The notes under the pieces: generated by a model
What the model was told of the DNA's origin: nothing
Database searches by the model: none
Seen by the model: the letters and a program-made list of their open reading frames with translations, nothing else
IMG/VR virus record: IMGVR_UViG_3300046543_000050
From: a virus
Lineage: Duplodnaviria; Heunggongvirae; Uroviricota; Caudoviricetes
Strand: one strand, 5' to 3'
Length of the DNA stretch: 64,000 bases
In this document: piece by piece, positions 7,364 to 31,999 of the stretch
Layout of the letters: every line of letters begins with the position of its first letter
Position numbering within the stretch: position 1 is the first letter of the stretch
Program-made: the position numbers and the translations under genes

Positions 7364-7371
7364 ACTAAATA
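7364..7371 (+). promoter_or_regulatory. gp55-type late promoter (ACTAAATA)
   Basis: Variant of T4 TATAAATA; the same octamer recurs before gp18, gp22 and gp23. Confidence 0.7.
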
Positions 7372-8171: not shown

Positions 8172-8903
8172 ATGAAAACTTTCAAGCAATTCCTTCGGGA
8201 ATCCGAACAACATCCGATGATCGACGTGGATGGGGTTCAGAAGCATCGCCACAACAGTGAGGGGCGACCCATTCATCCTACTGATGAAGGCGTTCGCAAC
8301 TTTCATCGATGGTTCGGAGACAGTAAGGCGGTCGATCATCATGGTAGGCCACAGGTGATGTACCACGCGTCCACATATGGTGACATCCACAAGTTCAATA
8401 CACATGAAGGTGCGTTCGGGAAAGCGGGTTACGGTTCATATTTCAGTAACCAACACGGTGCCAACATGTTCGCTGAATATGGTCAGCACTTCCAAGCCAA
8501 TCGTAGTTGGGCTGGCGAAGAAAAGAAAGTGAATGTGGCCCCGGTGTATTTGAAGATGAACAATCCGCACTATGCAGACCACGTTGATGATCTTCGTCCC
8601 GGTGTACATATTCATGCCGGTCAGACCTTCGGGCAAGGCGCACAGTACCAGAAGAACAAGCCAAATCCAGTTGGCCCGCTGGAAGCTAAGGGTCACGATG
8701 GCATCATCACATCCGAAACCACAGCCAAGAAGGTGCATAAGACCCAAGGGTTGAAGATTCTTGATAGGGACGACCCCAAGGCGACACGGTTCCCGGTACA
8801 TGTCGTGTTCCATCCGCATCAAATCAAGTCGGCTGTTGGAAACAACGGCAACTTCTCGGACAAATGGCCGCATAACGTTCATGAACAGGTTAAGCCAAGA
8901 TGA
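8172..8903 (+). CDS. Capsid-targeted ADP-ribosyltransferase-fold protein (ART-PolyVal-like)
   Basis: N-terminus MKTFKQFLRE|S; NFHRWFGDSKAVD..G.PQVMYH...G.GSYFS...V.PVYLKMNNP...G.DG motifs of the ART domain of phage polyvalent proteins; ~9% His. Confidence 0.7.
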   Translation: MKTFKQFLRESEQHPMIDVDGVQKHRHNSEGRPIHPTDEGVRNFHRWFGDSKAVDHHGRPQVMYHASTYGDIHKFNTHEGAFGKAGYGSYFSNQHGANMFAEYGQHFQANRSWAGEEKKVNVAPVYLKMNNPHYADHVDDLRPGVHIHAGQTFGQGAQYQKNKPNPVGPLEAKGHDGIITSETTAKKVHKTQGLKILDRDDPKATRFPVHVVFHPHQIKSAVGNNGNFSDKWPHNVHEQVKPR

Positions 8904-14574: not shown

Positions 14575-15147
14575 ATGATGGCTGATACAGTCTATTTCAA
14601 TGTCGATCAGTTCAAGTCGCAACTTGCTGGTGGTGGCGCTCGCCCGAACCAGTTCTTTGTGCAACTGACGTTCCCTACCTCAGTGACACTCGGTGCGCTG
14701 GCAATTCAGTCGTCTCCGTTCTTGGTGACGGCAGCTTCAATGCCGGGTTCCATCGTCAATGAGACGCAAGTGTATTACCGTGGCCGTGCTGTGAAGCTGG
14801 CTGGTGAGCGTACCTTCCAAGATTGGTCGGTGGTTGTGCTCAACGACAACAACTTCACGATCCGCAACGCGCTGGAAGATTGGTCGAACAAGATGAACGA
14901 CCTTCAGAACAACAGTGGCGAACTTAGCCCCTCTAAGTATACGGCGGACATGTTGGTTACGCAGTTGAACCGTAACAACCAACCGCTGAAAACTTATCAA
15001 ATCCGTTCTGCATGGCCGACGAACGTGTCTGAAGTGAACCTCGACTTTGGCGCAAACGACCAAATCTCGACGTTCAATGTTACGTTCGCGTACCAAGACT
15101 TCAAGACCACGATGACCCCGCTGGCAGGACTCGTTACTGGTGGTTAA
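14575..15147 (+). CDS. gp19: Tail tube protein gp19
   Basis: GGGARPNQF, AASMPGS, YRGR.VK.AG.RTF.DW.V...ND..F.IR..LE.W motifs. Confidence 0.96.
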   Translation: MMADTVYFNVDQFKSQLAGGGARPNQFFVQLTFPTSVTLGALAIQSSPFLVTAASMPGSIVNETQVYYRGRAVKLAGERTFQDWSVVVLNDNNFTIRNALEDWSNKMNDLQNNSGELSPSKYTADMLVTQLNRNNQPLKTYQIRSAWPTNVSEVNLDFGANDQISTFNVTFAYQDFKTTMTPLAGLVTGG

Positions 15148-16867: not shown

Positions 16868-17293
16868 ATGGAACTCATTAAATTGGGCGAATCGTTCGGT
16901 TTCAGCGCTGAATTCACACAAGTCCAAGAAATCACTGGCTACCACAATCACAACGGCGAAGCTATCGCGACGAGTGGTTCGGGCTGGTCGGTTGGCACGA
17001 AGAAAGACGCGAACGGTTTCTATGACCGTGGCGAAGCTGCACACTTTGACGACCTCGATTCAGCAAAGGCGTTCATTGATGGTGGCAAGACTGGCGAACA
17101 TACGACTGTCGCCAAGAAGTTCGGTTGGGACAAGCCCGCTGTTCAGGAATCGTTCATCGATCTGATCAGCACGGACAAGACGGCTGCTGAACAACGCTTC
17201 AAGCAGATCATGTCCGAGAAGGTTGCACACGCACTGGCTGCACGCCGTGTGGAGATTGCACAATCGTTGTACTCGCGCGTTCGGGGTGAGTAA
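16868..17293 (+). CDS. Prohead core protein (gp67-like C-terminus) with N-terminal extension
   Basis: C-terminal FIDLI..DKTAAEQRFKQIM.EKV..AL..RR.EIAQSL resembles gp67; follows the portal gene. Confidence 0.6.
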   Translation: MELIKLGESFGFSAEFTQVQEITGYHNHNGEAIATSGSGWSVGTKKDANGFYDRGEAAHFDDLDSAKAFIDGGKTGEHTTVAKKFGWDKPAVQESFIDLISTDKTAAEQRFKQIMSEKVAHALAARRVEIAQSLYSRVRGE

Positions 17294-18147
17294 TGAACTT
17301 CGCACAATTCCGCGCACAAAATGCGGCGCAAGCCCCTGCAAAGAAAGATGATGCGTGCGTCGATCCTGCGAGTTCAGAGACGAATACCAGTCCCGAAGCT
17401 GAGAAGGAACATCAGAACAAAGCCCTCCTGAAGATGAAGGGTGATTCAGTCTGGATTCCGAAGGAACCCAAGGTTCCCGGTTTGAGCGAAGCGAAGCATA
17501 AGACCCATCACAAGGTCAAGATTCACTTCGGCGGCGGTAAGAGTGAAATTCGCATGGTCGATGATGACGAACTTGGCGCGCTGCGTCGGTCGAATCACAT
17601 CACGAAGGTGTTCAACATCGCTGAAGTAAAGAACGGCGTCGAGTATCCGTACATCGTTGAAGAAGATGCCAACGTACTCGGGAACAAGAATACCAAGCAC
17701 TACGTTCATAAGAACGGCGACACAGCATACGTGATGTCGCACAAGTACAAAGACCCGGCGCTTGGTGAGGACCACTACGTCCACTTCTCGAAGGGTCGCG
17801 GCACGGTCTACAACAACGACGAAGGCAAGACCAAGGCAACGAAGTTGCTCAAGCGTCTTGGCTACAAGGTAAAGGTTTCGGAATCAGTACAAGTCAATGA
17901 AGTCACGGTAGCTGTCCACAAGGCATATCCGGGCAAAGTGGCTGCTGTGAAGTCCGATCTGCACCAGTTCCATAGCGACAATGGCGGCGGAATCAAGTCA
18001 TCAGAACATGGTGACTACGTTCACTTCCACTTGCCTAGCAAGGGGCACAACACAGCCGATAACGTCAAGCGGACCCTGAAGGATCACGAAAATCATCCGG
18101 CATATTCTTCAGAGAATGTCACGGAAAGCTACAAGGCAAAGGAATAA
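17293..18147 (+). CDS. Putative internal head polyprotein (His/Lys-rich modules separated by x-x-E sites)
   Basis: Located in the core-protein slot; MNFAQF start; LSE, IAE, IVE, VSE, VNE and VTE sites; ~7% His. Confidence 0.55.
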   Translation: MNFAQFRAQNAAQAPAKKDDACVDPASSETNTSPEAEKEHQNKALLKMKGDSVWIPKEPKVPGLSEAKHKTHHKVKIHFGGGKSEIRMVDDDELGALRRSNHITKVFNIAEVKNGVEYPYIVEEDANVLGNKNTKHYVHKNGDTAYVMSHKYKDPALGEDHYVHFSKGRGTVYNNDEGKTKATKLLKRLGYKVKVSESVQVNEVTVAVHKAYPGKVAAVKSDLHQFHSDNGGGIKSSEHGDYVHFHLPSKGHNTADNVKRTLKDHENHPAYSSENVTESYKAKE

Positions 18148-18539: not shown

Positions 18540-19193
18540 ATGAAACTGATTACAGAACTCTACGATGAAGTCGAGATGATCACCGAAGGTACAGGCGACA
18601 AGAAAGACCTGTACATCCACGGTATCTTTGCTCAGTCGAACATCGTGAACCGTAACAAACGGAATTACCCGAAAGCCCACATGGAATCCGCTGTCGATAA
18701 GTACAACGAAAACTATGTGACAAAGAATCGTGCGCTTGGTGAATTGAATCACCCACAACGCATGACGGTTGATCCAGAACGTGCCTGTATGTTGATTACG
18801 GAACTCAAGTGGGACCGTAACAATGTGATGGGTAAGGCCAAGATTCTGTCAGAAGGTGTCGGCAAGGTTGTTCGCGGCCTGATTCTTGATGGCGTAAATA
18901 TTGGAGTGTCAACGCGTGGTGGTGCATCTGTATCCCTGCGTGAAGGCGTTACTTACGTTGGTCCTGACTTGACCTTCTCTGCTATCGATGTGGTGACTGA
19001 CCCAAGTGGTCCTGATTGCTTCGTCAACGGCATCATGGAAGGTGTTGAGTGGATTTGTGAATCGGGTGTTTGGAAGATGGAGAAGATCATCCAGACTCAA
19101 GAAATCATTAAGGAAACCAAGTCCGCCGATCTTCCTAAGATGACGATGGACATCTGGGAACAGTTCGTAGGCAAGCTTCAATACCTCAAGTAA
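18540..19193 (+). CDS. gp21: Prohead protease gp21
   Basis: MKLITE start, NRNKRNYP, ALGELNHP, IGVSTRG, D.V.DPS.PD.FVNGIMEG. Confidence 0.96.
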   Translation: MKLITELYDEVEMITEGTGDKKDLYIHGIFAQSNIVNRNKRNYPKAHMESAVDKYNENYVTKNRALGELNHPQRMTVDPERACMLITELKWDRNNVMGKAKILSEGVGKVVRGLILDGVNIGVSTRGGASVSLREGVTYVGPDLTFSAIDVVTDPSGPDCFVNGIMEGVEWICESGVWKMEKIIQTQEIIKETKSADLPKMTMDIWEQFVGKLQYLK

Positions 19194-19259: not shown

Positions 19260-20234
19260 ATGTCACTGGAAAAGAAGATCACCAAGTTGCTTGCGGAACG
19301 TGCAACGCTCCCTATCAGCAACATGGACAACGGCGATAAGAAGCCGATCCCGGCTGGTTCGTCACAAGATGCAGAGTACACCGAACTGTCGAAAGACATC
19401 AAAGGTGATGAAGCTGCTGCACCTGTCACGCCCGCTGAAGCACAAGCCGCTCTGAAGTTGAAGGGCGACCCGACTACGGTCCAGACGCAAGCCCAGAAGG
19501 ATGCCAATGAAGCAACCGATCTGACTGGCCTGTTCGCTGGTGTCGAAGGTCTGGAAGAAGGTTTCGTTGCTAAGGCAACTGGCCTGTTCGAAGCTGTCGT
19601 TGTGGCCCGCGTCAATGCGGAAGTCATCAAGGCCGTCGAAAAGCTGACCGAACAAAGCGAAGCAGAACTGAAGGCAACGAAGGAAAAGCTGTCGGAAGAT
19701 GTCGATGCTTACCTGTCGTATGTCGTGGAATCATGGGTGAAGGAAAACCAACTGTCGGTTGATGCTGGTCTGCGCACCGAAGTTGCTGAATCGTTCATCG
19801 CCGGTCTGAAAGACCTGTTCGTAGAGAATTACATCGAAGTCCCTGAAGATAAGGTCAACGTTGTTGAATCCCTGTCCACGGAAGTCGAAGCAACGAAATC
19901 GCGTCTGAATGAAGAAATCGAGAAGTCGATTGCTCTGTCGGACAAGATCATCAAACTTGAAAAGCAAGCTGTGTTGGAACAAGCGGCGAAGGGTCTGGCA
20001 GCAACGGACGCTGAACGTCTTGGCCGACTGGTCGAAGGCGTCGAGTTTGATACACAAGAAGTGTTTGCAGAAAAGGTTGCAGTCATCAAGGAAGCACACT
20101 TCAAGACCCAACCGAAGAAATCTGCCGAAACGCTTCTGGCAGAGCAAACCGGTCACGGTAATAGCGAAAGCAAGGAAATCGCTCCCCAAGTCGCACGTTA
20201 CGTTTCCGCTCTCAATCGTAATTCCAAGTTCTAA
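19260..20234 (+). CDS. gp22: Prohead scaffold protein gp22
   Basis: FEAVV, D.YLSYVVE.W..EN, GLRTEVAESFIAGLKDLF.E.YIEVPE. Confidence 0.94.
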   Translation: MSLEKKITKLLAERATLPISNMDNGDKKPIPAGSSQDAEYTELSKDIKGDEAAAPVTPAEAQAALKLKGDPTTVQTQAQKDANEATDLTGLFAGVEGLEEGFVAKATGLFEAVVVARVNAEVIKAVEKLTEQSEAELKATKEKLSEDVDAYLSYVVESWVKENQLSVDAGLRTEVAESFIAGLKDLFVENYIEVPEDKVNVVESLSTEVEATKSRLNEEIEKSIALSDKIIKLEKQAVLEQAAKGLAATDAERLGRLVEGVEFDTQEVFAEKVAVIKEAHFKTQPKKSAETLLAEQTGHGNSESKEIAPQVARYVSALNRNSKF

Positions 20235-21822: not shown

Positions 21823-23550
21823 GTGCATACCATGACAATCAAAGATTCCAGACTGACTGACAAGGACTGGCTTCATCAGAAGCGGGTTGTCGAACGCCTC
21901 ACCTACGATGAAATCGGGGCCATCCTCGGCGTTTCTCGTGGTCCGGTAATTCGCGTATGCAAGAAGTTTGGCCTTGGCGATGTCAATGCACAGTTTGGAT
22001 CACAAGAATCTCAGACTCGTCTTTCAGACCGTGGCTGGCTTCATCAGAAGCGGGTTGTCGAACGACTTTCATATGTTGCCATTGGTAATGAATTGGGCGT
22101 AGCGGATATTACGGTGTCCCGCGCGTGCAAGTCACTCGGTATCGAATCGGACAACTACAGCGAAGTCTCTGGGGACGCTAAGGCGTGTTTGGAAGACAAG
22201 GACTGGCTTCATCAGAAGCGCGTTGTCGAGCGTCTATCATTCGAGAAGATCGGTGAAATTATCGGCGTGTCAATCTCGACGGTTAAGAAGGCATGTGTTC
22301 GATTCGGATTTGATGATTCGAAATACAATGCCAACCTAGAACAAGTAAAGCGCCTTCTGGAAGACAAGGACTGGCTTCATCAGAAGCGGGTTGTCGAACA
22401 TATGACGTTAAAAGCCATCGCGAATGAACTTGGCGTGGACCGTGCGACCGTGAAGTCCGCGTGGGATGCTCTCGCATTACCCGACATCAACCATAAGAGA
22501 ATTTCCGCCGTCGCAAGTGATGCCTTGGGCGATTATGAATGGCTATGGCAGAAATACAAGACGGAGTGCCTTACTCACAAGGAAATTGGTTCGCATCTGG
22601 GAATATCAGAAGAACCCGTCCGGGATGCGCTGGTCAAGTTCAACATCGAAGCCAATTCACGTGGCGTATACAACACTGGTACGTCGAACGCGGAGCAAGA
22701 GATCGTTGACTTCATTCGTTCTTTCTACGATGGAGAAATCATCACTTCGGCAAGATCACTACTTGGCGATGGTCGGGAAGTAGACATTTACATCCCAGAA
22801 AAGAAGCTTGCCATTGAATACAATGGCGTGTACTTCCATCTGTTTCGGCCCGATGAAACTGCATACTCTCTCAGGAAAGATTCAACATACCACGTATCAA
22901 AGACGGACATCCTCAACGAAAAGGGGATTGAACTGATCCAGATGTGGTCCAGTGATTGGCAGAATAAGAAAGCAATTTGGAAGTCCCGAATCAAGGCCAA
23001 GTTTGGTATCGTGGAGAACAAGATTCACGCCAGAAAGTGCCAGATTCGCGATATTTCATCTGCGGATAAAAATGAATTCTTGAACGAAAACCATCTTCAA
23101 GGTCAAGATCGGGCAACTGTCAAGCTTGGTCTGTTCTTCTCGGACGAATTGGTTTCCGTCATGACATTCATACGAGCGGATTCATATAAGTCTGCTGAGT
23201 GGGAACTGAGTCGATTTGCGACGAAGTTGGATGTATTGGTTGTTGGCGGATTCTCTAAGTTGTTGAAGTACTTCCGCCAGAACAATCCCGGTTCGGTGGT
23301 TTCATATGCCGACAGGATGCACTCGATTGGCAACGTATATTCCAAGAATGGATTCATCATTCATCATGTTAATAAGCCCGCATACCATTATGTCAAGCGC
23401 GGGTCGGAAGTCCTAGAGAACCGTCAGAAGTTCATGAAGTATAAGATTCGACGGGATGAAGCTGATACCCGCACCGAATACGAGATAGCGTCGGAACTCG
23501 GGTATCACAGGATTTATGACTGCGGCACTCTGACCTACGTCCTGCACTAA
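21823..23550 (+). CDS. Hef-like free-standing homing endonuclease: five N-terminal HTH-like repeats, PD-(D/E)XK (Vsr/DUF559-like) nuclease, GNAT-like C-terminal domain
   Basis: EQEIVDFI...REVDIYIPEKKLAIEYNGVYFH...ARKC.I...NHLQG...ELSRFA...GGFSKLLKYF...SYADR. Confidence 0.75.
   Translation: MHTMTIKDSRLTDKDWLHQKRVVERLTYDEIGAILGVSRGPVIRVCKKFGLGDVNAQFGSQESQTRLSDRGWLHQKRVVERLSYVAIGNELGVADITVSRACKSLGIESDNYSEVSGDAKACLEDKDWLHQKRVVERLSFEKIGEIIGVSISTVKKACVRFGFDDSKYNANLEQVKRLLEDKDWLHQKRVVEHMTLKAIANELGVDRATVKSAWDALALPDINHKRISAVASDALGDYEWLWQKYKTECLTHKEIGSHLGISEEPVRDALVKFNIEANSRGVYNTGTSNAEQEIVDFIRSFYDGEIITSARSLLGDGREVDIYIPEKKLAIEYNGVYFHLFRPDETAYSLRKDSTYHVSKTDILNEKGIELIQMWSSDWQNKKAIWKSRIKAKFGIVENKIHARKCQIRDISSADKNEFLNENHLQGQDRATVKLGLFFSDELVSVMTFIRADSYKSAEWELSRFATKLDVLVVGGFSKLLKYFRQNNPGSVVSYADRMHSIGNVYSKNGFIIHHVNKPAYHYVKRGSEVLENRQKFMKYKIRRDEADTRTEYEIASELGYHRIYDCGTLTYVLH
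21859..22560 (+). repeat. In-frame tandem repeat with 168-nt (56-aa) period inside the endonuclease
   Basis: Core CTGGCTTCATCAGAAGCG(G/C)GTTGTCGA in units starting 21859, 22027, 22195 and 22363; degenerate fifth unit at 22531. Confidence 0.92.
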
Positions 23551-25089: not shown

Positions 25090-25280
25090 CCAAAGATGGA
25101 ACCACACAAACCCCAACAAGTCTTAGACGTAAGTCCTTGATTTAGTTGGGGTTTATCGTTTCTGACACTTGGTCCAATCATGGTTTTGTGTGAAAAGTAG
25201 TTGACAGAATATGCGTCGCATGGTTACACTTGTTTCCAAGGTAGCCCACCGGCACCTATAACTGAGGGAGATAAAGTCTC

Positions 25281-26135
25281 ATGGCAACTACACACAAGAT
25301 TGAGCCGAATTCGCAGGGCGGCAAGAACACGGTGCTCAAGCCATTGAACATCGTCGCTCGTTCGAACGGCGGGAACATGTCGCAGGGTGCGACCACTGGC
25401 GAAGTCCCGGTCCTGATCAAGCGTCGCACGCGGCGTCAAGTCAGCGATGCCGCGATCAAGAAGAACATGGAACTTGCAGAGAAGGCCCAGAAACGGGCGG
25501 ACGCTGCAAAGGCACGCGCTGAACGTCAGGCTGCACTGGCGACAGAGAAGGTGAAACAGGCCGAACAGATTCGTCTGGACGCGGAACGTCGCGAACAGGA
25601 GGAACGTGAAGCTGCACAACGAGCACAGGAGGACCGCGAGCGAATCGCGCGTGATTCCGTATCGGCTTCGAGGGGTACGACGACAGTCCCGGCTGTCGCG
25701 ATGACGCCTGAGATTGGCACGATGCTCAAGCGTGTGACGCGAGAGTTCGAGAAGCTTTTCGATGATCTGGCGGACAAGTACGGAGTGCAGTTCCAGTTCG
25801 CATCGACGGATAACGTCAGCGGTGAACCGACACTGGTCAAGCGGGGATTCATCTCTGTGCGACTGCGCGGCGATCTGCCGACCGAAAAGAAGTCGATCCC
25901 GGTCGCGGCGAATGATCTGTCGGTCGCACGAAGCGAAGCCCGGTTCATGAAGTTCTACAAGATGATCGGCCTCACCCCTGACCTATTCAACAAGGAAGTC
26001 AGGATCAAGGACGACCCGCATACGTACATCGTCTCGGGACTCCGGGGCAAGTCACATGCAGTCGTGCTGCGTCGAAAGGACAACGGGGAGATGTTCACCG
26101 TTCCGCACGGGGACTTTAAGAAATCCCTTGCTTGA
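25281..26135 (+). CDS. Hypothetical protein with central charged coiled coil and SH3-like C-terminus
   Basis: GAGGGAG RBS; TTGACA-18-TACACT promoter at 25201-25230. Confidence 0.7.
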   Translation: MATTHKIEPNSQGGKNTVLKPLNIVARSNGGNMSQGATTGEVPVLIKRRTRRQVSDAAIKKNMELAEKAQKRADAAKARAERQAALATEKVKQAEQIRLDAERREQEEREAAQRAQEDRERIARDSVSASRGTTTVPAVAMTPEIGTMLKRVTREFEKLFDDLADKYGVQFQFASTDNVSGEPTLVKRGFISVRLRGDLPTEKKSIPVAANDLSVARSEARFMKFYKMIGLTPDLFNKEVRIKDDPHTYIVSGLRGKSHAVVLRRKDNGEMFTVPHGDFKKSLA

Positions 26136-26212
26136 TGGACGGGGATCGTAATATCCTTGAAGTGTGGGTTGGGCCTGATCCCTCTCACACGTCCCAGAAG
26201 TACGTCAGTTAG

Positions 26213-26248
26213 GGCGCGATTAGTTGACCACTAATCGCGCCTCTTTTT
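26213..26248 (+). terminator. Rho-independent terminator
   Basis: GGCGCGATTAG-ttgacca-CTAATCGCGCC-TCTTTTT. Confidence 0.85.
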
Positions 26249-26253
26249 GCGTC

Positions 26254-26261
26254 CATAAATA
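26254..26261 (+). promoter_or_regulatory. Late promoter CATAAATA driving the effector cassette
   Basis: Late consensus immediately after the terminator and about 27 nt before the first gene. Confidence 0.65.
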
Positions 26262-26287
26262 TTGACAAGAACAACGAGGGGTGCTAG

Positions 26288-27088
26288 ATGCTCAACTTCA
26301 AACAATTTGTAACCGAACAGAACCAAGCCGCCGTCGAACAAGGCGTGATGGTCAATGGCGTCCCCAATGTCTTGATTCAGAAAGGCGTCAAGCAAGGCAC
26401 TCTGGACAAGAATGGTCTACCGTGCGTCCTGATCCAGAAGCCGCGCAGGAAGGCCGTAAACGAGGACGTGACGCCTTCGCCGAAGTGGACCAGTGTCAAC
26501 GACAATGCGCACCTTGGCGAACGCTCTGCGCAAGTCCATGAGGCTTTGGCGAGTGCAGACAAACACATTGCTGCCGACACACATCACATTCGCCACTATA
26601 GCGATGATTCGAATGATCTGAACACAACATTGTTCAAGGATCATCGCTATGGTCGTCAGTCAGAACGACACATCGGCGACCATGATACCAAGGGTCTTGA
26701 TGCTGCGGTGAATCGCAACAAACTCAAACATGATCTGAACGTCTATTCGGGCGTCGGGTTCCATCCGGGCCATATGGCTGCACGTCACCCGGAAGGTCAC
26801 GTCCACATGGCGGCATACACGTCAACGTCGATTGACAAACATACGGCTTTGGAGTTCGCATCAGAACACGAAGACGAGAATGATGAACATCATGTCATCC
26901 ACTTCCACTTGAAGAAAGGTCAGAAGGGAAAGTACGCTGCCCCTCATGCAATCCCAAGTGTGGAACATGAGCGCGAGTTCATCTTGCCGCGTCAGACGAC
27001 AGTCAAGCTTCATCCCGAACCCACGGTCCATCGCTCGGGCGGTTCGATTTACAACATCTGGCACGCACATGTAGTGGACAACAAATGA
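26288..27088 (+). CDS. Capsid-targeted Alt/VIP2-like ADP-ribosyltransferase
   Basis: MLNFKQFVTE|Q; IRHYSDDS.DLN..L, VYSG, YTSTS, EREFILPR. Confidence 0.78.
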   Translation: MLNFKQFVTEQNQAAVEQGVMVNGVPNVLIQKGVKQGTLDKNGLPCVLIQKPRRKAVNEDVTPSPKWTSVNDNAHLGERSAQVHEALASADKHIAADTHHIRHYSDDSNDLNTTLFKDHRYGRQSERHIGDHDTKGLDAAVNRNKLKHDLNVYSGVGFHPGHMAARHPEGHVHMAAYTSTSIDKHTALEFASEHEDENDEHHVIHFHLKKGQKGKYAAPHAIPSVEHEREFILPRQTTVKLHPEPTVHRSGGSIYNIWHAHVVDNK

Positions 27089-27747
27089 AGACATTCAACG
27101 AATTCAAGAAACATCTGATCATGGAAGCCGAAGCGTCGGAAGCCATGAAACAGATGACCTTCTATCACGGCACAACGCGTCGCGAAGCTGCGCTCGGGAT
27201 CGCGAAGGACGGCATCAAACCGGGCGCTGTTAAGCAAGCTAAGGGTCATCTCGCGCCAGTGGCCGGGAAGGTCTACGCAACCCCGCATATCGGCTATGCA
27301 CAGACGTATGCGATGGGTGGAGACATTGCCGGGTCCGATCACATGATGACGCATCACAAGACTGAACCGCATGGCTACGTGTTCGCGGTCCACGGTGATC
27401 AGTTGAAGCACGTTCAACCTGACGAAGACAGCGTTGGCGAAGCTATCTATCACAAGAAGCATGGTTGGCTGAATCACATGGCAAACCAACACCTGACGGA
27501 CGGTCAGCTACGCCGCGTCAAAGATGGTGAGTATGCTGAGTTTGCCCGATCTGGGAAGAAGCTGGTCAAGAAGATGACGGATAGTCAGAAGCTTGATGTG
27601 ATCCACGGTGGCGCGCACATCGCCCATGAAGGCGAACTCAAGCCGCACGCCGTCTATCGAATCCATCACAGCAAGATTCCCTTACTCAAGAGTGATGGTT
27701 CCAACTTCTTTGATCATGCAGAGAAGATTGACCCGAAGGACATCTGA
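27085..27747 (+). CDS. Capsid-targeted H-Y-type ADP-ribosyltransferase-fold protein
   Basis: MKTFNEFKKHLIME|A; FYHGT...A..I.KDGIKPG...VYATP...AQTYA. Confidence 0.65.
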   Translation: MKTFNEFKKHLIMEAEASEAMKQMTFYHGTTRREAALGIAKDGIKPGAVKQAKGHLAPVAGKVYATPHIGYAQTYAMGGDIAGSDHMMTHHKTEPHGYVFAVHGDQLKHVQPDEDSVGEAIYHKKHGWLNHMANQHLTDGQLRRVKDGEYAEFARSGKKLVKKMTDSQKLDVIHGGAHIAHEGELKPHAVYRIHHSKIPLLKSDGSNFFDHAEKIDPKDI

Positions 27748-28151
27748 TGAAATCGTTCAAACAATTCGTCACTGAGTCCGACTTCGATCACAGCAAGCGC
27801 TCGCTCGTTGGTGATGATGGCGACAAGATCAGCACGCATGGTGGTTACATCGACATCAAGCATTCGAACACCGACTGGTCCCCGCGCAAGCATTCAATCG
27901 TGGACTTCGTTGTCGATGAAGACAAGCGTGGTCAAGGCATCGGCCACAAGCTGGTGTCTCATGCCCTCACCAAGTACAATGATCTTGGTGGACAGGCATC
28001 ATCGGCTGCGTCAGTGAAGGTGCTGCATGATCATGGCTTCCGTCACCCGGCAATGCCGCATGGCTCCCTGAAGGAACACATCGACAAGATGAATGAAGAT
28101 TCGTCCGTGTACATGGCACACAAAGACGAGAACGGGAAGCCGTACAAATGA
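27747..28151 (+). CDS. Capsid-targeted GNAT acetyltransferase
   Basis: MKSFKQFVTE|S; IVDFVVDEDKRGQGIGHKLV acetyl-CoA motif A. Confidence 0.75.
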   Translation: MKSFKQFVTESDFDHSKRSLVGDDGDKISTHGGYIDIKHSNTDWSPRKHSIVDFVVDEDKRGQGIGHKLVSHALTKYNDLGGQASSAASVKVLHDHGFRHPAMPHGSLKEHIDKMNEDSSVYMAHKDENGKPYK

Positions 28152-28723
28152 AGTCGTTCAAGACATTCATCGCTGAAGCGAAGGTGACGGACAAGGCCCA
28201 CATCCAGAACTATACGGACCTGTCTCGTCCCCTCTCGCGCATCCTGCATCAACATCACGAAGCCGGTACACAGCCGCCGCGCCAGATCGAGCATGACGGC
28301 CAACACTTCGACCTCGACGCACTGGACAGGATCACCACGAAGTCTAAGCTGGCTTCCAAGACGACTGTCTACAGCGGCATCCGTCATGATCCGCGCAAAC
28401 ACATGGACTCAGAAGGACATCTACACCTTCCGGCCTATACATCGACATCCGAGAAGTGGGGAATCGGGCATCAGTTTGCGATGAAGCAAGCACGCCGCAA
28501 TGACGCGGACGGACGGTTGGGCGATAGTCACATGCTGCGCATCAACCTTCAGAAAGGTCAGCACGCCGTGTCTCTCGCCAACAAGTCAACGTATAAGAAC
28601 GAGGGTGAACGTCTGTTGCCACGAAACACGAAGTTGAAGGTCCATCCTGTACCTGAGACATCGACCGACTCAGAAGGACGCAATCACCACGTCTGGGATG
28701 CACATGTCGTCAGTCAGGAATAA
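28148..28723 (+). CDS. Capsid-targeted Alt/VIP2-like ADP-ribosyltransferase (paralog of 26288)
   Basis: MKSFKTFIAE|A; IQNYTD.S..L, VYSG, YTSTS, EGERLLPRNT. Confidence 0.78.
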   Translation: MKSFKTFIAEAKVTDKAHIQNYTDLSRPLSRILHQHHEAGTQPPRQIEHDGQHFDLDALDRITTKSKLASKTTVYSGIRHDPRKHMDSEGHLHLPAYTSTSEKWGIGHQFAMKQARRNDADGRLGDSHMLRINLQKGQHAVSLANKSTYKNEGERLLPRNTKLKVHPVPETSTDSEGRNHHVWDAHVVSQE

Positions 28724-28724
28724 C

Positions 28725-28749
28725 AAAAGCCCGCATTCGCGGGCTTTTT
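28725..28749. terminator. Bidirectional terminator
   Basis: AAAAGCCCGC-attc-GCGGGCTTTT between convergent operons. Confidence 0.85.
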
Positions 28750-28753
28750 CATT

Positions 28754-29209
28754 TTACGCGGACATCTTCAAGGCTTCTGGGAGACACTTGACGATTTCTC
28801 GCGCGCCGTACATCCTGATCATGGTTGACAGGATGTCGGTGATCTGAGGGTTCGGTGTGGGATCAATCTCTGACCATGCCGCTTCGCGATCCCAATTCCC
28901 ATCATTGCCATAGGCGGTATAGTGCCGGTCGCGGTCTTGGATGATGCGCGGGTCGAACAGCCGGGCGGGGTTGATGTGGTAGATACCGTTCTGCATCGGT
29001 TCAGGGAAGCTGACGTTGATCATACCGCATTTCCGCATCGCGTTGAGATATGACGAGACTGTCGTCCGCGAGTACCCATTCGCTTTGATGTACTCGTCTA
29101 CTTCTTCTCCATACCGAATGTCTTTCGCCCGAAGTCCGGGATTCTTTGCGACATATTCATAGATGATCTTATGAAGACCATACTTTCTATCAGGATTTCC
29201 ACGACGCAT
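28754..29209 (-). CDS. Hypothetical winged-HTH protein
   Basis: IYEYV..NPGLRA.DI...YSRTTVSSYL..MRK.G.I pattern; GAGG RBS. Confidence 0.55.
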   Translation of the reverse strand: MRRGNPDRKYGLHKIIYEYVAKNPGLRAKDIRYGEEVDEYIKANGYSRTTVSSYLNAMRKCGMINVSFPEPMQNGIYHINPARLFDPRIIQDRDRHYTAYGNDGNWDREAAWSEIDPTPNPQITDILSTMIRMYGAREIVKCLPEALKMSA

Positions 29210-29247
29210 AAATTTACCTCATACTAGGTATTAAACAATGCCTGAAA

Positions 29248-29490
29248 TTAGGCTTTCTTCCGCTTTGCAGCGTTTCTTTCGTGATACGTCAACCCTTTCT
29301 TGGCCGACGACATCGACGTTCCCGCATGGGTCGCACTGTGTGAATGCTGACCTGAGAAATAGTCAATTTGGAGTTGTCGCGCGGCGTCCGACATGAAGGT
29401 GTCGATCCGCCGCGTATTCCCACAAATCTTGCACCGTATCTCGTTGTCCGTCAGGCCGATAAGTTCGATGTGGTTTGGATGCTCAAACAT
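29248..29490 (-). CDS. Small hypothetical protein with CxxC and His residues
   Basis: CKICG motif; overlaps the ARH stop codon. Confidence 0.5.
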   Translation of the reverse strand: MFEHPNHIELIGLTDNEIRCKICGNTRRIDTFMSDAARQLQIDYFSGQHSHSATHAGTSMSSAKKGLTYHERNAAKRKKA

Positions 29491-30412
29491 GTTCTTCGTT
29501 CAGGTGGAACAGTTCCTTGACGTAGCGGTTTTCAAGCGACGGCTGGATGAACTGTACCCATTCACTCGGAATGGCTTCCAGACCGAATACGAGGGCCGCT
29601 ATGCCGCCCACGACGCACGCGTTGGTGTCCGTGTCGCCGCCGTACATGATAGCCCGTTTGACGGCAGCTGCGTAGTTGTGGGTGTTCTCGATACAGTCGA
29701 GAACGATGTTCAGAGTGTCGATCACGTAGCCCGACCCGAAGTCCTGTTGATATTCAGGCGGGGACCATTCCAACACTGCGCCCGCCAGACTCCACAGCAT
29801 CAGGAATTGCGCCTTGTCGATGTGACTACCCTGCTTGTTCTGCTGGTCGGCAATCATCCGGGCCAACAAGACATAGAACTGGCACGCCTTGATGCAGTCC
29901 TCGCTGTTATGCGTGATGACGCTGCACTGGAAGGCCATCCGAATCATCGTGTGCGAATCGTCCGTCACGAATGCAATCGGCAGCACGCGCATCAACGACC
30001 CGTTACCCGACGCCCGCGACTCATGGATACGGATGTCGCCCTTGCGTCCGTAGTGCGCAAGTTGTGACGCCGTTTGCATCCCTTCATCGAAGGCTTGGCC
30101 GCTGACCCAATACTTGCCCTTGCGCCATTGCAGAAGGTCTTCGTAGAAAGGAGTCGCGTCAGTCGTCTCAGCATTGAAGTGGACATTGACGCAAAGCTGC
30201 TGACTGAAATCGTCACTGTACACGCCCAAGGGAACCCCGTAGGTCTTGTAATCAAGATCAATTTCGGTCGGATGGTCCACGAAGTACGGGTTGATCGCGT
30301 GATCTTCTTTGAACTCATGCGGGACTCCCAAGGCATCGCCAAGCATAGCCCCGAACATGGCGATTTGTTTCTGGTCAAGTGCAGTAAAATCAAACATGGT
30401 CGTTTTCTCCAT
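29483..30412 (-). CDS. ADP-ribosylglycohydrolase (DraG/ARH family)
   Basis: GAMLGDALGVPHEF, YSDD, GNGSLMR..P, ITH, GGDTDTNACVVGGIA; metal-binding Asp motifs intact. Confidence 0.9.
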   Translation of the reverse strand: MEKTTMFDFTALDQKQIAMFGAMLGDALGVPHEFKEDHAINPYFVDHPTEIDLDYKTYGVPLGVYSDDFSQQLCVNVHFNAETTDATPFYEDLLQWRKGKYWVSGQAFDEGMQTASQLAHYGRKGDIRIHESRASGNGSLMRVLPIAFVTDDSHTMIRMAFQCSVITHNSEDCIKACQFYVLLARMIADQQNKQGSHIDKAQFLMLWSLAGAVLEWSPPEYQQDFGSGYVIDTLNIVLDCIENTHNYAAAVKRAIMYGGDTDTNACVVGGIAALVFGLEAIPSEWVQFIQPSLENRYVKELFHLNEEHV

Positions 30413-30451
30413 GACTAAGTATGGATAGAGTATACCACTACTATCCTACGA

Positions 30452-31999
30452 ATGTCCACAGTTGATATTGAAATTATTCCCAAAGATGCGAATTATTGTC
30501 GCATCAAATGTTCCCCCGACATTGCAAGAGAGTTGTCCTCGCATTTCAGCTTCGAAGTACCCGGCGCGAAATTCTCTCCCATGTACAAGTCTGGGGTTTG
30601 GGACGGTCGGACCAAGCTGTTCAACCTACTGACGCGAGAAATCTACGTAGGATTGATCCCCTACGTGTTCAAGTACGCGAAGGACGCCGGTTACAGCATC
30701 ACCGACAGTGCATCGCTCCCTGACACAGAGAATATCACGTTCGAACTGATCGAGAAGTTCATGAAGGCCCTGAATCTACAGAGCCGTGGTGAACCCATCG
30801 AGATACGGGACTACCAGATCGAAGCCATCGTCCAAGCGCTGAAATACAACCGCCGTCTGCTGCTGTCACCGACCTCAAGCGGCAAGTCGCTGATCATCTA
30901 TGGCATCGTGCGCTGGTACTCATTGCAGAAGAAAAAGTTCCTTCTGCTGGTCCCGAACAAGTCACTGGTCGCGCAGTTGTTCAAAGACTTCGAGGACTAC
31001 AGCACGGCCAATGGGTGGGACGTTGACGCCAACTGCCATATGATCTATGGCGGTCAAGAGAAAGTCACAGACAAGCCCATAAGTTTATCAACTTGGCAGT
31101 CACTTTACAAGATCGGTAAAGGCGCACCGAAACAGGGCAAGCTGGAAGAAGGCGTACCGACTAACTATTTCGATAAGTTCGATGTCGTGATCGGAGACGA
31201 AGCCCATCTGTTCAAGGCTGCGAGCATCGTCGGCATCATGACACGTTGTAAGAACGCTACGAAACGGATCGGCACGACAGGCACTTTGGACGGAAGTGAG
31301 ACAAACAAGCTTGTGCTCGAAGGATTGTTTGGTACGATCTATCGCGTAACTACTACGAAGGACTTGATGTCTTCGGGACAAGTTGCCGATCTGAGTATCA
31401 AGGTGTTACAGCTTGAATATTCAGACGAAATTCGCAAGGCGGTGTCGGGTGGTAAGGTAAAACTTACTTACGACCAAGAGATGGACTACCTTTGTCAATC
31501 TCCGAAGCGTAATAATTTCATATCCAACCTTGCAGTGTCGCAGAAGCGCAACACCTTAGTCCTGTTCCAGTACGTCGAGCACGGCAAAAAGTTGTATGAT
31601 ATGATCAGTGAACGCTGTGGAGTTGACCGAAAGGTCTTCTTCGTTTCGGGTGACACTGGTTTGGCTGATCGGGAAGATGTACGGGAGTTGACTGAGAACA
31701 ACGAAGGGGTGGTAATTATTGCCTCTTACGGGACTTTCTCTACGGGTGTCAACGTGCGCAACATTCATTCCGTTATCTTTGCGTCGCCAAGCAAAAGTCG
31801 AGTCCGCAACCTTCAATCCATTGGGAGAGGATTGCGATTAGGTAAAGGTAAGATGTCATGTGTGCTGTACGACATCGGGGACGACCTGTCGTGGAAGAAA
31901 AGAAGTAACTATACCCTGCTGCATTTGATAGAACGGCTGAAGATTTATGCCGAAGAAAAGTTGACGTACAAGATCATCGCAGTACCACTCGGAACCTGA
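30452..31999 (+). CDS. uvsW: UvsW SF2 DNA/RNA-DNA helicase
   Basis: W.G..KLF, RDYQ, SPTSSGKS, GDEAH, GTTGT, STGVN, LQSIGRGLR. Confidence 0.96.
   Translation: MSTVDIEIIPKDANYCRIKCSPDIARELSSHFSFEVPGAKFSPMYKSGVWDGRTKLFNLLTREIYVGLIPYVFKYAKDAGYSITDSASLPDTENITFELIEKFMKALNLQSRGEPIEIRDYQIEAIVQALKYNRRLLLSPTSSGKSLIIYGIVRWYSLQKKKFLLLVPNKSLVAQLFKDFEDYSTANGWDVDANCHMIYGGQEKVTDKPISLSTWQSLYKIGKGAPKQGKLEEGVPTNYFDKFDVVIGDEAHLFKAASIVGIMTRCKNATKRIGTTGTLDGSETNKLVLEGLFGTIYRVTTTKDLMSSGQVADLSIKVLQLEYSDEIRKAVSGGKVKLTYDQEMDYLCQSPKRNNFISNLAVSQKRNTLVLFQYVEHGKKLYDMISERCGVDRKVFFVSGDTGLADREDVRELTENNEGVVIIASYGTFSTGVNVRNIHSVIFASPSKSRVRNLQSIGRGLRLGKGKMSCVLYDIGDDLSWKKRSNYTLLHLIERLKIYAEEKLTYKIIAVPLGT

Follow-up and report, generated by a model that had tools for sequence, protein, structure and literature searches.

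Why would a T4-like phage keep, in the region of uvsY and uvsW, a run of small enzyme genes that all begin with much the same short peptide? The question is raised by a cassette at positions 26,288 to 28,723 of a 64,000-nucleotide stretch (hereafter the window) of IMG/VR record IMGVR_UViG_3300046543_000050, a virus of the Caudoviricetes. The cassette consists of four plus-strand open reading frames (ORFs): ORF A (26288-27088, 266 amino acids, aa), ORF B (27085-27747, 220 aa), ORF C (27747-28151, 134 aa) and ORF D (28148-28723, 191 aa). ORFs A, B and D resemble ADP-ribosyltransferases (ARTs) and ORF C a GNAT acetyltransferase. We consider it likely that the cassette is a late operon of four internal-head-type enzymes, which would be packaged in the capsid and injected into the host. 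Stop and start codons overlap at the three junctions (ATGA at A/B, TGATG at B/C, ATGA at C/D), and the four genes are therefore translationally coupled. The layout proposed by an earlier sequence-only reading, four coupled genes between a terminator followed by a late promoter and a bidirectional terminator, was recovered in full as ORFs, hairpins and motif.

The source is an uncultured T4-like soil phage whose DNA recurs in rhizosphere and soil metagenomes. The window carries a T4-like gene set (gp13-like, gp14, gp15, a gp21-type protease, gp22 scaffold, gp23, gp19, UvsY and UvsW), and its UvsW shares only about 50% identity with that of cyanophages. The cassette DNA matched none of the 50,697 phage records of INPHARED. 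In a second soil sample it differed by 10 single-nucleotide polymorphisms (SNPs), nine of the 10 synonymous, which supports selection on the cassette.

A T4-type leader on unrelated proteins

The leaders read MLNFKQFVTE/Q in ORF A, MKTFNEFKKHLIME/A in ORF B, MKSFKQFVTE/S in ORF C and MKSFKTFIAE/A in ORF D (slashes mark the predicted cut), identical in the ORF translations to the four gene starts quoted earlier. Their common form, M-K/L-S/T/N-F-x-x-F-[VIL]-x-E, is like that of the T4 internal protein (IP) IPIII. The capsid targeting sequence (CTS) of T4 is MKTYQEFIAE (PMC8442874); mutational work assigned its residues 4 and 7 to targeting and 8 and 10 to processing, and T4 Alt and the IPs enter heads through N-terminal sequences taken off by gp21 (PMC9026906). 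ORFs A, C and D, together with a fifth tagged gene at 8172-8903, carry F4, F7, V, I or L at position 8 and E10, fitting the mapped positions of the T4 CTS; ORF B has F4 and F7 followed by a 14-residue variant ending in LIME at residue 14. The proposal that the leader is a T4-type packaging sequence is thus borne out, as a likeness, by its match to MKTYQEFIAE at positions 4, 7, 8 and 10.

The strict pattern M-xx-[FY]-xx-[FYLWM]-xx-[ED] was present in only four of the 147 ATG-initiated ORFs of at least 80 aa in the window, namely ORFs A, C and D and the gene at 8172-8903; the leader in these genes is not a chance occurrence. The latter gene (plus strand) encodes a 243-aa ART of the ART-PolyVal type (PF18760, 9.6e-17, 62.5 bits) with the leader MKTFKQFLRE/S, and is placed between the gp13-like and gp14-like neck genes; its search against INPHARED phages returned only distant matches, which come without virion data. 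When the profile of the ORF B family was aligned to the 8172-8903 protein with HHalign, twelve leader residues aligned and nothing else. The five tagged proteins come from sequence families unrelated to one another (A/D, B, GNAT and ART-PolyVal). Because the codons differ among the leaders, the leader appears to be selected as a peptide. A recent gene duplication was considered as the origin of the shared leader and rejected, the families being unrelated in sequence and the codons different. Among metagenomic homologs, the strict leader was found in 33 of 120 for ORF B, nine of 18 for the GNAT and 17 of 29 for ORF D, and the pooled consensus across families is M-K-[TS]-F-K-Q-F-[LIV]-x-E. In the structural models of ORFs B and C the first 10 residues form a separate helix of low confidence.

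The tagged proteins also share an unusual composition: they are the five most His-rich of the 45 gene products of the window (8.9-10.2% His, against a median of 1.9%). A putative core or internal protein (17293-18147) contains 7.0% His. Within the ORF B family, His content was 7.4% in members with a T4-type leader and 4.3% in those without it (Mann-Whitney p 1.5e-5, a test that ignores phylogeny). The His-rich composition of proteins of unrelated fold may reflect life inside the capsid.

Enzyme folds of the cassette proteins

ORFs A and D belong to the family of Alt and C3. Both exceed the cut-off of PF03496 (ADPrib_exo_Tox, 23.4 bits), with 39.3 bits (5.6e-10) for ORF A and 39.5 bits (4.9e-10) for ORF D; both match the Alt-like PHROG 802; and a profile of twelve cassette ARTs, from the window and its relatives, aligned to the ART domain of T4 Alt with an HHalign probability of 76% (E 2.3e-5). 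The motifs are VYSG, YTSTS and E-R-E-FILPR in ORF A and VYSG, YTSTS and E-G-E-RLLPR in ORF D. The ART domain of ORF D follows directly after the leader, and ORF A has an extension after its leader (residues 15-65, 26330-26480) with two NG[VL]P.VLIQK repeats. This repeat motif recurs in the ART paralogs of relatives, and VPAVLIMQ is found in distant homologs.

The cassette ART paralogs are only 32-44% identical, yet STS, both Glu residues of ExE and LLPR are invariant among them; YTSTS and E-x-E-x-[LI]-L-P-R are likewise invariant in the cassette ARTs and in 29 clusters of ORF D homologs. Since these motifs do not vary, the active site of A and D seems to be maintained. The exception is the Arg of the Arg-Ser-Glu (R-S-E) triad. 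VYSG aligns under VYRG of C3larvin (phmmer, ORF D) and under LYRS of T4 Alt (HHalign), so that Ser stands in place of Arg; this strand-1 site is S or T in 11 of the 12 cassette ARTs and S, T or H in all 29 clusters of the D family. The assignment of A and D to the R-S-E class therefore stands as regards PF03496 membership, STS and ExE, and fails for the Arg of the triad, which is Ser in both. By their sequence, ORFs A and D are homologs within the R-S-E clade with a conserved Arg-less predicted active site, not canonical members. Neither ORF D by tblastn against INPHARED nor a pattern scan of IMG/VR with ORF D gave a match.

ORF B had no match in Pfam or PHROG, and its assignment comes from structure prediction. 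It has 154 metagenomic homologs; an AlphaFold (AF2) model built from 60 of them reached a pLDDT of 93, and the top 50 VIA-align matches of this model were all ARTs: KptA/Tpt1 was best (Z 8.3), and TreX, pertussis S1, scabin, PARPs, DarT and diphtheria toxin were also among them (Z 8.3-5.5). The model further matched DUF4433 (the DarT family) in AFDB at 1e-4 and a viral DarT/PARP cluster in the ESM Atlas (TM 0.59). The family profile gave only a sub-threshold Tpt1 match among PDB sequences (E 0.16). H28-G29, Y64, Y75 and P112-D113-E114-D115 are invariant in 60 homologs; in the model, H28 and Y64 lie on or next to the strands 25-30 and 62-66, and PDED follows the strand 109-112. The strand-1 motif YHGT aligns in sequence to Tpt1. 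The distance from His to Tyr is 36 residues, with a further 11 to the second Tyr, and the His-Tyr spacings of diphtheria toxin and PARP1 (36, 11) are comparable. ORF B is like the H-Y-E/D ARTs (Tpt1/KptA, DarT, PARP, diphtheria toxin) in fold and in the YHGT of strand 1, and unlike them in lacking a Pfam family and in the much shorter distance of its candidate acidic residue (PDED) from the Tyr pair. As modelled, ORF B has an H-Y signature with a candidate acidic residue in PDED, and the claim of one H-Y-class ART fold holds: the model matches only ART folds, and the His and Tyr are invariant. The only match of ORF B in a cultured phage was to the Tunturiibacter phage Tunturi_5 (27% identity, tblastn, INPHARED).

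ORF C passes two acetyltransferase profiles of Pfam, PF00583 with 29.9 bits (cut-off 20.7) and PF13673 with 27.0 bits (cut-off 23.6). Its AF2 model has a pLDDT of 90, and the 50 best Foldseek matches in the PDB were all GNATs (probability 1.00, TM about 0.5), including streptothricin acetyltransferases, Naa50, RimI and GCN5. The predicted acetyl-CoA loop is R61-G-Q-G-I-G66, in which G62, G64 and G66 are invariant in 17 homologs. On profile and model, ORF C is a trimmed mini-GNAT acetyltransferase, in agreement with the single acetyltransferase called from the sequence; the predicted models of ORFs B and C display the ART and GNAT folds expected of them. No Foldseek match to the PDB reached E <= 1e-3 for either model (best 8e-3 for ORF B), and for this reason the two fold calls rest on the uniform match lists, the VIA-align Z-scores and Pfam. 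NCBIfam gave sub-threshold matches only for ORFs A-D, and PADLOC had no match for any cassette protein.

The prohead protease and poly-ART proteins

An enzyme that could remove the leaders is encoded in the window: the gp21-type prohead serine protease (18540-19193, plus strand; PF03420 Peptidase_S77, 8.9e-41; PHROG 207, 1.6e-63) presumably does so, by analogy with T4. The gp22 scaffold (19260-20234) contains many [LIV]-x-E sites. The N-terminus of the protease, MKLITELYDEVEMITE (18540-18590), contains ITE twice, a motif resembling the site at which T4 Alt is cut (ITE-6), which suggests N-terminal autoprocessing.

A second line of evidence on processing comes from other members of the ART family. 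When the cassette ARTs were used as a profile in an exhaustive search, 9,218 representatives matched, the best of which were giant proteins (42 of the top 150 with at least 700 aa) with up to 9-10 tandem Arg-less ART units. One of them, P0168 (L010:8001-15134, 2,377 aa), has nine VYSG...STS...ExE units; its gene lies on a T4-like contig of 240 kb that also carries genes of T4-type nucleotide metabolism. The units of these poly-ART proteins are joined by linkers of the form ...V-W-x-V-x-P-H-...-[LIVM]-x-E/A (for example LHE/A, LNE/A and IHE/L), and their N-termini are CTS-like (for example MPLPTFRTFSE and MLVPSFTSYITE). The simplest reading of these sequences is that the giant poly-ARTs are polyproteins cut by the prohead protease, and that the cassette genes correspond to such units, each separately tagged. 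From the [LIVM]-x-E linkers we infer that the ART family is tied to protease processing independently of the T4 analogy.

Transcription signals of the cassette

Upstream of ORF A lies an intrinsic terminator of the preceding 284-aa gene (26212-26242, plus strand; a 13-bp stem with 7 GC pairs, then CTTTTT), which, as predicted from its sequence, shields the cassette from upstream transcription. It is followed by the late-promoter-like motif CATAAATATTGACA (26254-26267, plus strand; 26 nt before the start codon of ORF A), with CATAAATA at 26254-26261 and the core TAAATA at 26256-26261. The T4 late promoter is TATAAATA. TAAATA occurs 16 times on the plus strand of the window and never on the minus strand, and lies 25-80 nt upstream of gp13, gp18, the genes at 14575 and 16868, gp22, gp23, gp19 and ORF A; the strand counts in five relatives were 9:0, 8:0, 13:1, 7:0 and 7:0. 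The first cassette gene of the relatives L001, L003 and L008 is preceded by C[AC]TAAATATTGACAA, then GGGTGCTAG-ATG, and at the same upstream place these relatives have a hairpin with a T run, the stem sequences of which differ. Downstream, a bidirectional terminator (28725-28748, both strands; a 10-bp stem between A and T runs) would serve the cassette and the convergent minus-strand genes, and AAAAGCCCGC...GCGGGCTTTT is kept downstream of the final cassette gene in L001, L003 and L008. The TAAATA element resembles a T4-type late promoter and supports late-only transcription of the cassette. A late promoter had been placed before the cassette, and the motif found there is common to the structural genes, follows a terminator and is conserved in relatives.

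A 195-nt metatranscriptome contig mapped to ORF D; it may reflect DNA carry-over and was not used as evidence. The TAAATA motifs at 7366, 24004 and 26256 are directly followed by [GT]TTGA[CA], as they also are before the first cassette gene of L001, L003 and L008. The sequence upstream of the cassette, TAAATATTGACA, contains a perfect -35 hexamer. TAAATA-[GT]TTGA[CA] may represent a longer form of the late promoter or a sigma-70 site that overlaps it.

Relatives and modularity of the cassette

The close relatives L001, L003 and L008 (gp23 87-97% identical to that of the window) and the more distant L005 have cassettes of different composition: A-B-GNAT-D in the window, A-B-ART-ART-D in L001, A'-B-ART in L003, A'-GNAT-D in L008, and B-ART plus a 74-aa tagged ORF in L005. 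The tag is present on every cassette gene of the window and of these four relatives. The 74-aa ORF (L005:8550-8774) starts with MITFKQFVGE and is of unassigned fold.

Related proteins were also found in other contexts. An ORF B homolog of the contig L006 fills the gp13-gp14 slot, where the window has the ART-PolyVal gene; a GNAT homolog with a different leader is flanked by the portal and scaffold genes in a P22-like phage; and a 375-kb contig encodes a 329-aa fusion (L009:11322-12311) of the leader MLSFVQFNE, a GNAT and an ART with the canonical VYRG. The same contig has a 343-aa tagged ORF of unassigned fold (L009:5963-6994) starting with MLSFLQYRLQE. The changing gene sets in the relatives and in these other contexts indicate that the cassette is a modular cargo slot, and that GNAT and ART are functionally linked. 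The idea of a modular arsenal gains from the relatives, as even close ones hold different sets of tagged enzymes at the equivalent locus.

The convergent ADP-ribosylglycohydrolase

A DraG/Tri1-like ADP-ribosylglycohydrolase (ARH) without a leader is encoded on the minus strand downstream of the cassette (29483-30412; PF03747 ADP_ribosyl_GH, 8e-48, full length). Its best NCBIfam matches were Tri1 ADP-ribosylarginine hydrolase (1.3e-30) and DraG (4.5e-22), both below the equivalog cut-offs. The gene is on the strand opposite to the cassette in L001, L003, L005 and L008, which are all the relatives examined, with 33-71% identity. A sigma-70-like promoter precedes it (30429-30458, minus strand; TGGACA-18-TATACT with an upstream TG), a 10/12 match recognised by consensus only. 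Judging by this promoter, the ARH is probably made early, as an eraser or safeguard. It is a candidate eraser of Arg-linked ADP-ribose, a chemistry that matches ExE-type Arg-directed ARTs.

Proposed mechanism and alternative explanations

The course of events that we propose for the packaged enzymes is as follows. During prohead assembly the CTS would dock each enzyme to the scaffolding core, and the gp21-type protease would cut after [VIL]-x-E, at residue 10 or, in ORF B, at residue 14. The mature enzymes, of 14-29 kDa, would remain in the DNA-filled head, enter the cell with the genome and modify macromolecules of the host ahead of any phage gene expression. ORFs A and D would most likely ADP-ribosylate arginine residues of proteins; ORF B, from the branch of Tpt1, DarT, PARP and diphtheria toxin, could target protein or nucleic acid; and ORF C, being RimI/GCN5-like, would most likely acetylate a protein. 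By removing Arg-ADP-ribose, the ARH would either restrict how long the injected enzymes take effect or shield the cell against those freshly synthesised.

Several points count against this mechanism. That the enzymes are packaged, cleaved, injected and active, what they act on and when the ARH is made are all deduced from the genome of an uncultured phage, and the function of the CTS is established in T4 alone, with a scaffold distant from the one encoded here. The late promoter is a motif call: the 7-mer ATAAATA is not enriched (4 matches, a number reached in 28 of 100 shuffles), and the argument for it therefore rests on the strand bias and position of TAAATA. The correlation of His content with the leader does not take phylogeny into account. 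With Ser or Thr for Arg, the activity or the donor substrate of A and D may differ from those of Alt and C3. An early ARH would moreover oppose injected Arg-specific ARTs unless timing or targets differ.

Three other explanations were weighed against packaging and injection. The enzymes might be made late and act, unpackaged, in the producing cell, the conserved N-terminus serving translation initiation, stability or some other localisation. T4 ModA and ModB are precedents for unpackaged ARTs (PMC9503650), an ARH at the locus could balance intracellular activity, and packaging is here deduced from sequence; we nevertheless judge this unlikely, because the leader fits the T4 CTS at the functionally mapped positions and ends in a protease motif, because it occurs on unrelated folds and is replaced by LxE linkers in the polyprotein relatives, and because homologs lie inside head and neck gene modules. 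Still less probable is a role of the locus in addiction or superinfection exclusion, in which the ARTs and the ARH, the latter as antidote, would form a toxin-antitoxin or exclusion module resembling DraT/DraG or Tre1/Tri1. The presence of an ARH beside ARTs in all five related loci would agree with such a module, as would its best scores against Tri1 and DraG and the fact that an Aeromonas phage ART-ADP-ribosylglycohydrolase (ART-ARG) pair has been read as a toxin-antitoxin (PMC9503650; Aeh1 ORF131c/132c, PMC1524935). Here, however, the ARH is encoded on the strand opposite to the ARTs, the two sides have promoters of different types and would not be co-transcribed, a single ARH faces two to five ARTs of different clades plus a GNAT, no PADLOC match was found for the cassette proteins, and the leaders and cleavage motifs would be left unexplained.

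The loss of the Arg bears on the remaining explanation, namely that A and D are catalytically dead and serve as internal proteins with a structural or DNA-associated role, or else as decoys or inhibitors in the manner of T4 IPI. Ser or Thr replaces the R of R-S-E across the whole subfamily, His is near 10%, and the T4 IPs are non-enzymatic (PMC9026906). A dead fold would scarcely be expected to retain STS, both ExE Glu residues and LLPR without variation across paralogs of 32-44% identity and 29 clusters; ORFs B and C keep their own catalytic motifs, and the SNPs are mostly synonymous. We regard this explanation as about as improbable as the toxin-antitoxin module, and retain a packaged and injected set of enzymes as the likely one.

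Comparison with known systems

The closest parallel to the tags is provided by the T4 IPs, which have the same kind of ten-residue leader (aromatic at 4 and 7, hydrophobic at 8, Glu10) and a gp21-type protease; their genes look non-essential and encode a cargo that varies among related phages, as here, and are late, as is predicted for the cassette. The T4 IPs, however, are small, basic, Lys-rich and non-enzymatic (IPI* inhibits GmrSD), whereas the proteins described here are four to five His-rich enzymes of 14-29 kDa, the cassette lying between uvsY and uvsW. T4 Alt, of the Alt/VIP2 clade, shares the ART domain with aligned STS and ExE-LPR, and its head packaging and gp21 processing are the model from which those of the cassette proteins are inferred here; its leader, MELITE, is cut at ITE-6, with another cut at LTE-619 (PMC5694885). 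Alt differs in its size (682 aa, with a large non-ART part) and in keeping the Arg (LYRS), while A and D have VYSG, a single domain and an IP-type leader.

Head-delivered polyvalent proteins were described by Iyer et al. (2017), with ART as the commonest enzyme domain (up to 12 copies) and a GNAT typically adjoining the ART (PMC5512222); Iyer et al. (2022) argued that head packaging is suggested by the genomic setting of about 44% of phage ARTs, and reported ART-ARG pairs in Aeromonas phages (PMC9503650). The statement in the sequence-only reading that no described cassette combines such ARTs with a GNAT was hence overstated, as head-packaged ARTs of myoviruses and a GNAT beside an ART were already known (PMC5512222, PMC9503650). 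The polyvalent and MuF-fused ARTs of these studies resemble the cassette in the combination of ART and GNAT, the late or head gene setting and the predicted early modification of the host; they are single giant polypeptides or MuF fusions, whereas here separate genes are each provided with a T4-type tag. P0168 and the GNAT-ART fusion of L009 appear, by their sequences, to bridge the two architectures. The ART-ARG pairs (DraT/DraG, Tre1/Tri1, Aeh1 ORF131c/132c) are similar in that an ART of the Arg-directed class stands beside a DraG/Tri1-like hydrolase and the pairing is conserved; in the present locus the ARH is convergent, not co-operonic and untagged, and is matched with a GNAT and several ARTs that belong to two clades. 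Particular to this locus are the separate, IP-tagged, single-domain genes with two ART clades and a GNAT per operon; the Arg-less ART subfamily; the conserved convergent ARH; and the existence of related polyproteins whose units are joined by protease-type linkers.

Should the tag function as it does in T4, the proteins that a T4-like phage injects could be read from its genome; if the proposed mechanism is true, this phage injects at least four ART-fold enzymes and an acetyltransferase, compared with the single Alt of T4. The locus would be a compact system for studying the action of injected enzymes in the first seconds of infection, ART function without the Arg, and the timing or containment exerted by an ARH. 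The reshuffled cassettes and the linker-bearing polyprotein versions show how such arsenals evolve, and the leaders could be used to load engineered cargo into phages other than T4. A broader conjecture, which we hold to be rather doubtful, combines these features: the leader and the L-x-E linker would be a portable cargo code by which soil T4-like phages swap capsid enzymes; the Arg-less S/T-S-ExE ARTs would represent a new type of ART catalysis, whose donor or acceptor departs from the canonical one (NAD-capped RNA or nucleic acid, for instance); the early ARH would complete a timed writer/eraser circuit in which the host is shut down within seconds and unwanted marks are then erased; and the high His content would be physically required for the proteins to be stored in the DNA-filled head or to leave it.

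Neighbouring genes

The cassette had been described as inserted between uvsY and uvsW. The region is the same, whereas direct flanking by these two genes does not hold, since a 284-aa gene and three minus-strand genes intervene. The former (25281-26135), between uvsY and the cassette, has no leader and no family match; it is preceded by a sigma-70-like promoter (25201-25230), has a GC content of 57-59% and is conserved, with homologs at the equivalent place in L001, L003 and L008. The three minus-strand genes between the cassette and uvsW (28754-30412) are the ARH gene and, 3' of it, the genes of an 80-aa CxxC protein (29248-29490) and of a 151-aa protein (28754-29209) with weak helix-turn-helix (HTH) matches; the HTH and Zn-ribbon matches of this pair were all sub-threshold. 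The 151-aa gene had no counterpart in L001 or L008; the 80-aa CxxC gene has a weak one in both.

Elsewhere in the window, an HNH/homing-endonuclease-like gene encoding 575 aa with several HTH modules (21823-23550) lies between gp23 and gp19. The same slot holds a GIY-YIG endonuclease in L001 and no endonuclease in L003; because its content differs among these three genomes, the gp23-gp19 slot appears to be a hot spot for mobile endonucleases.

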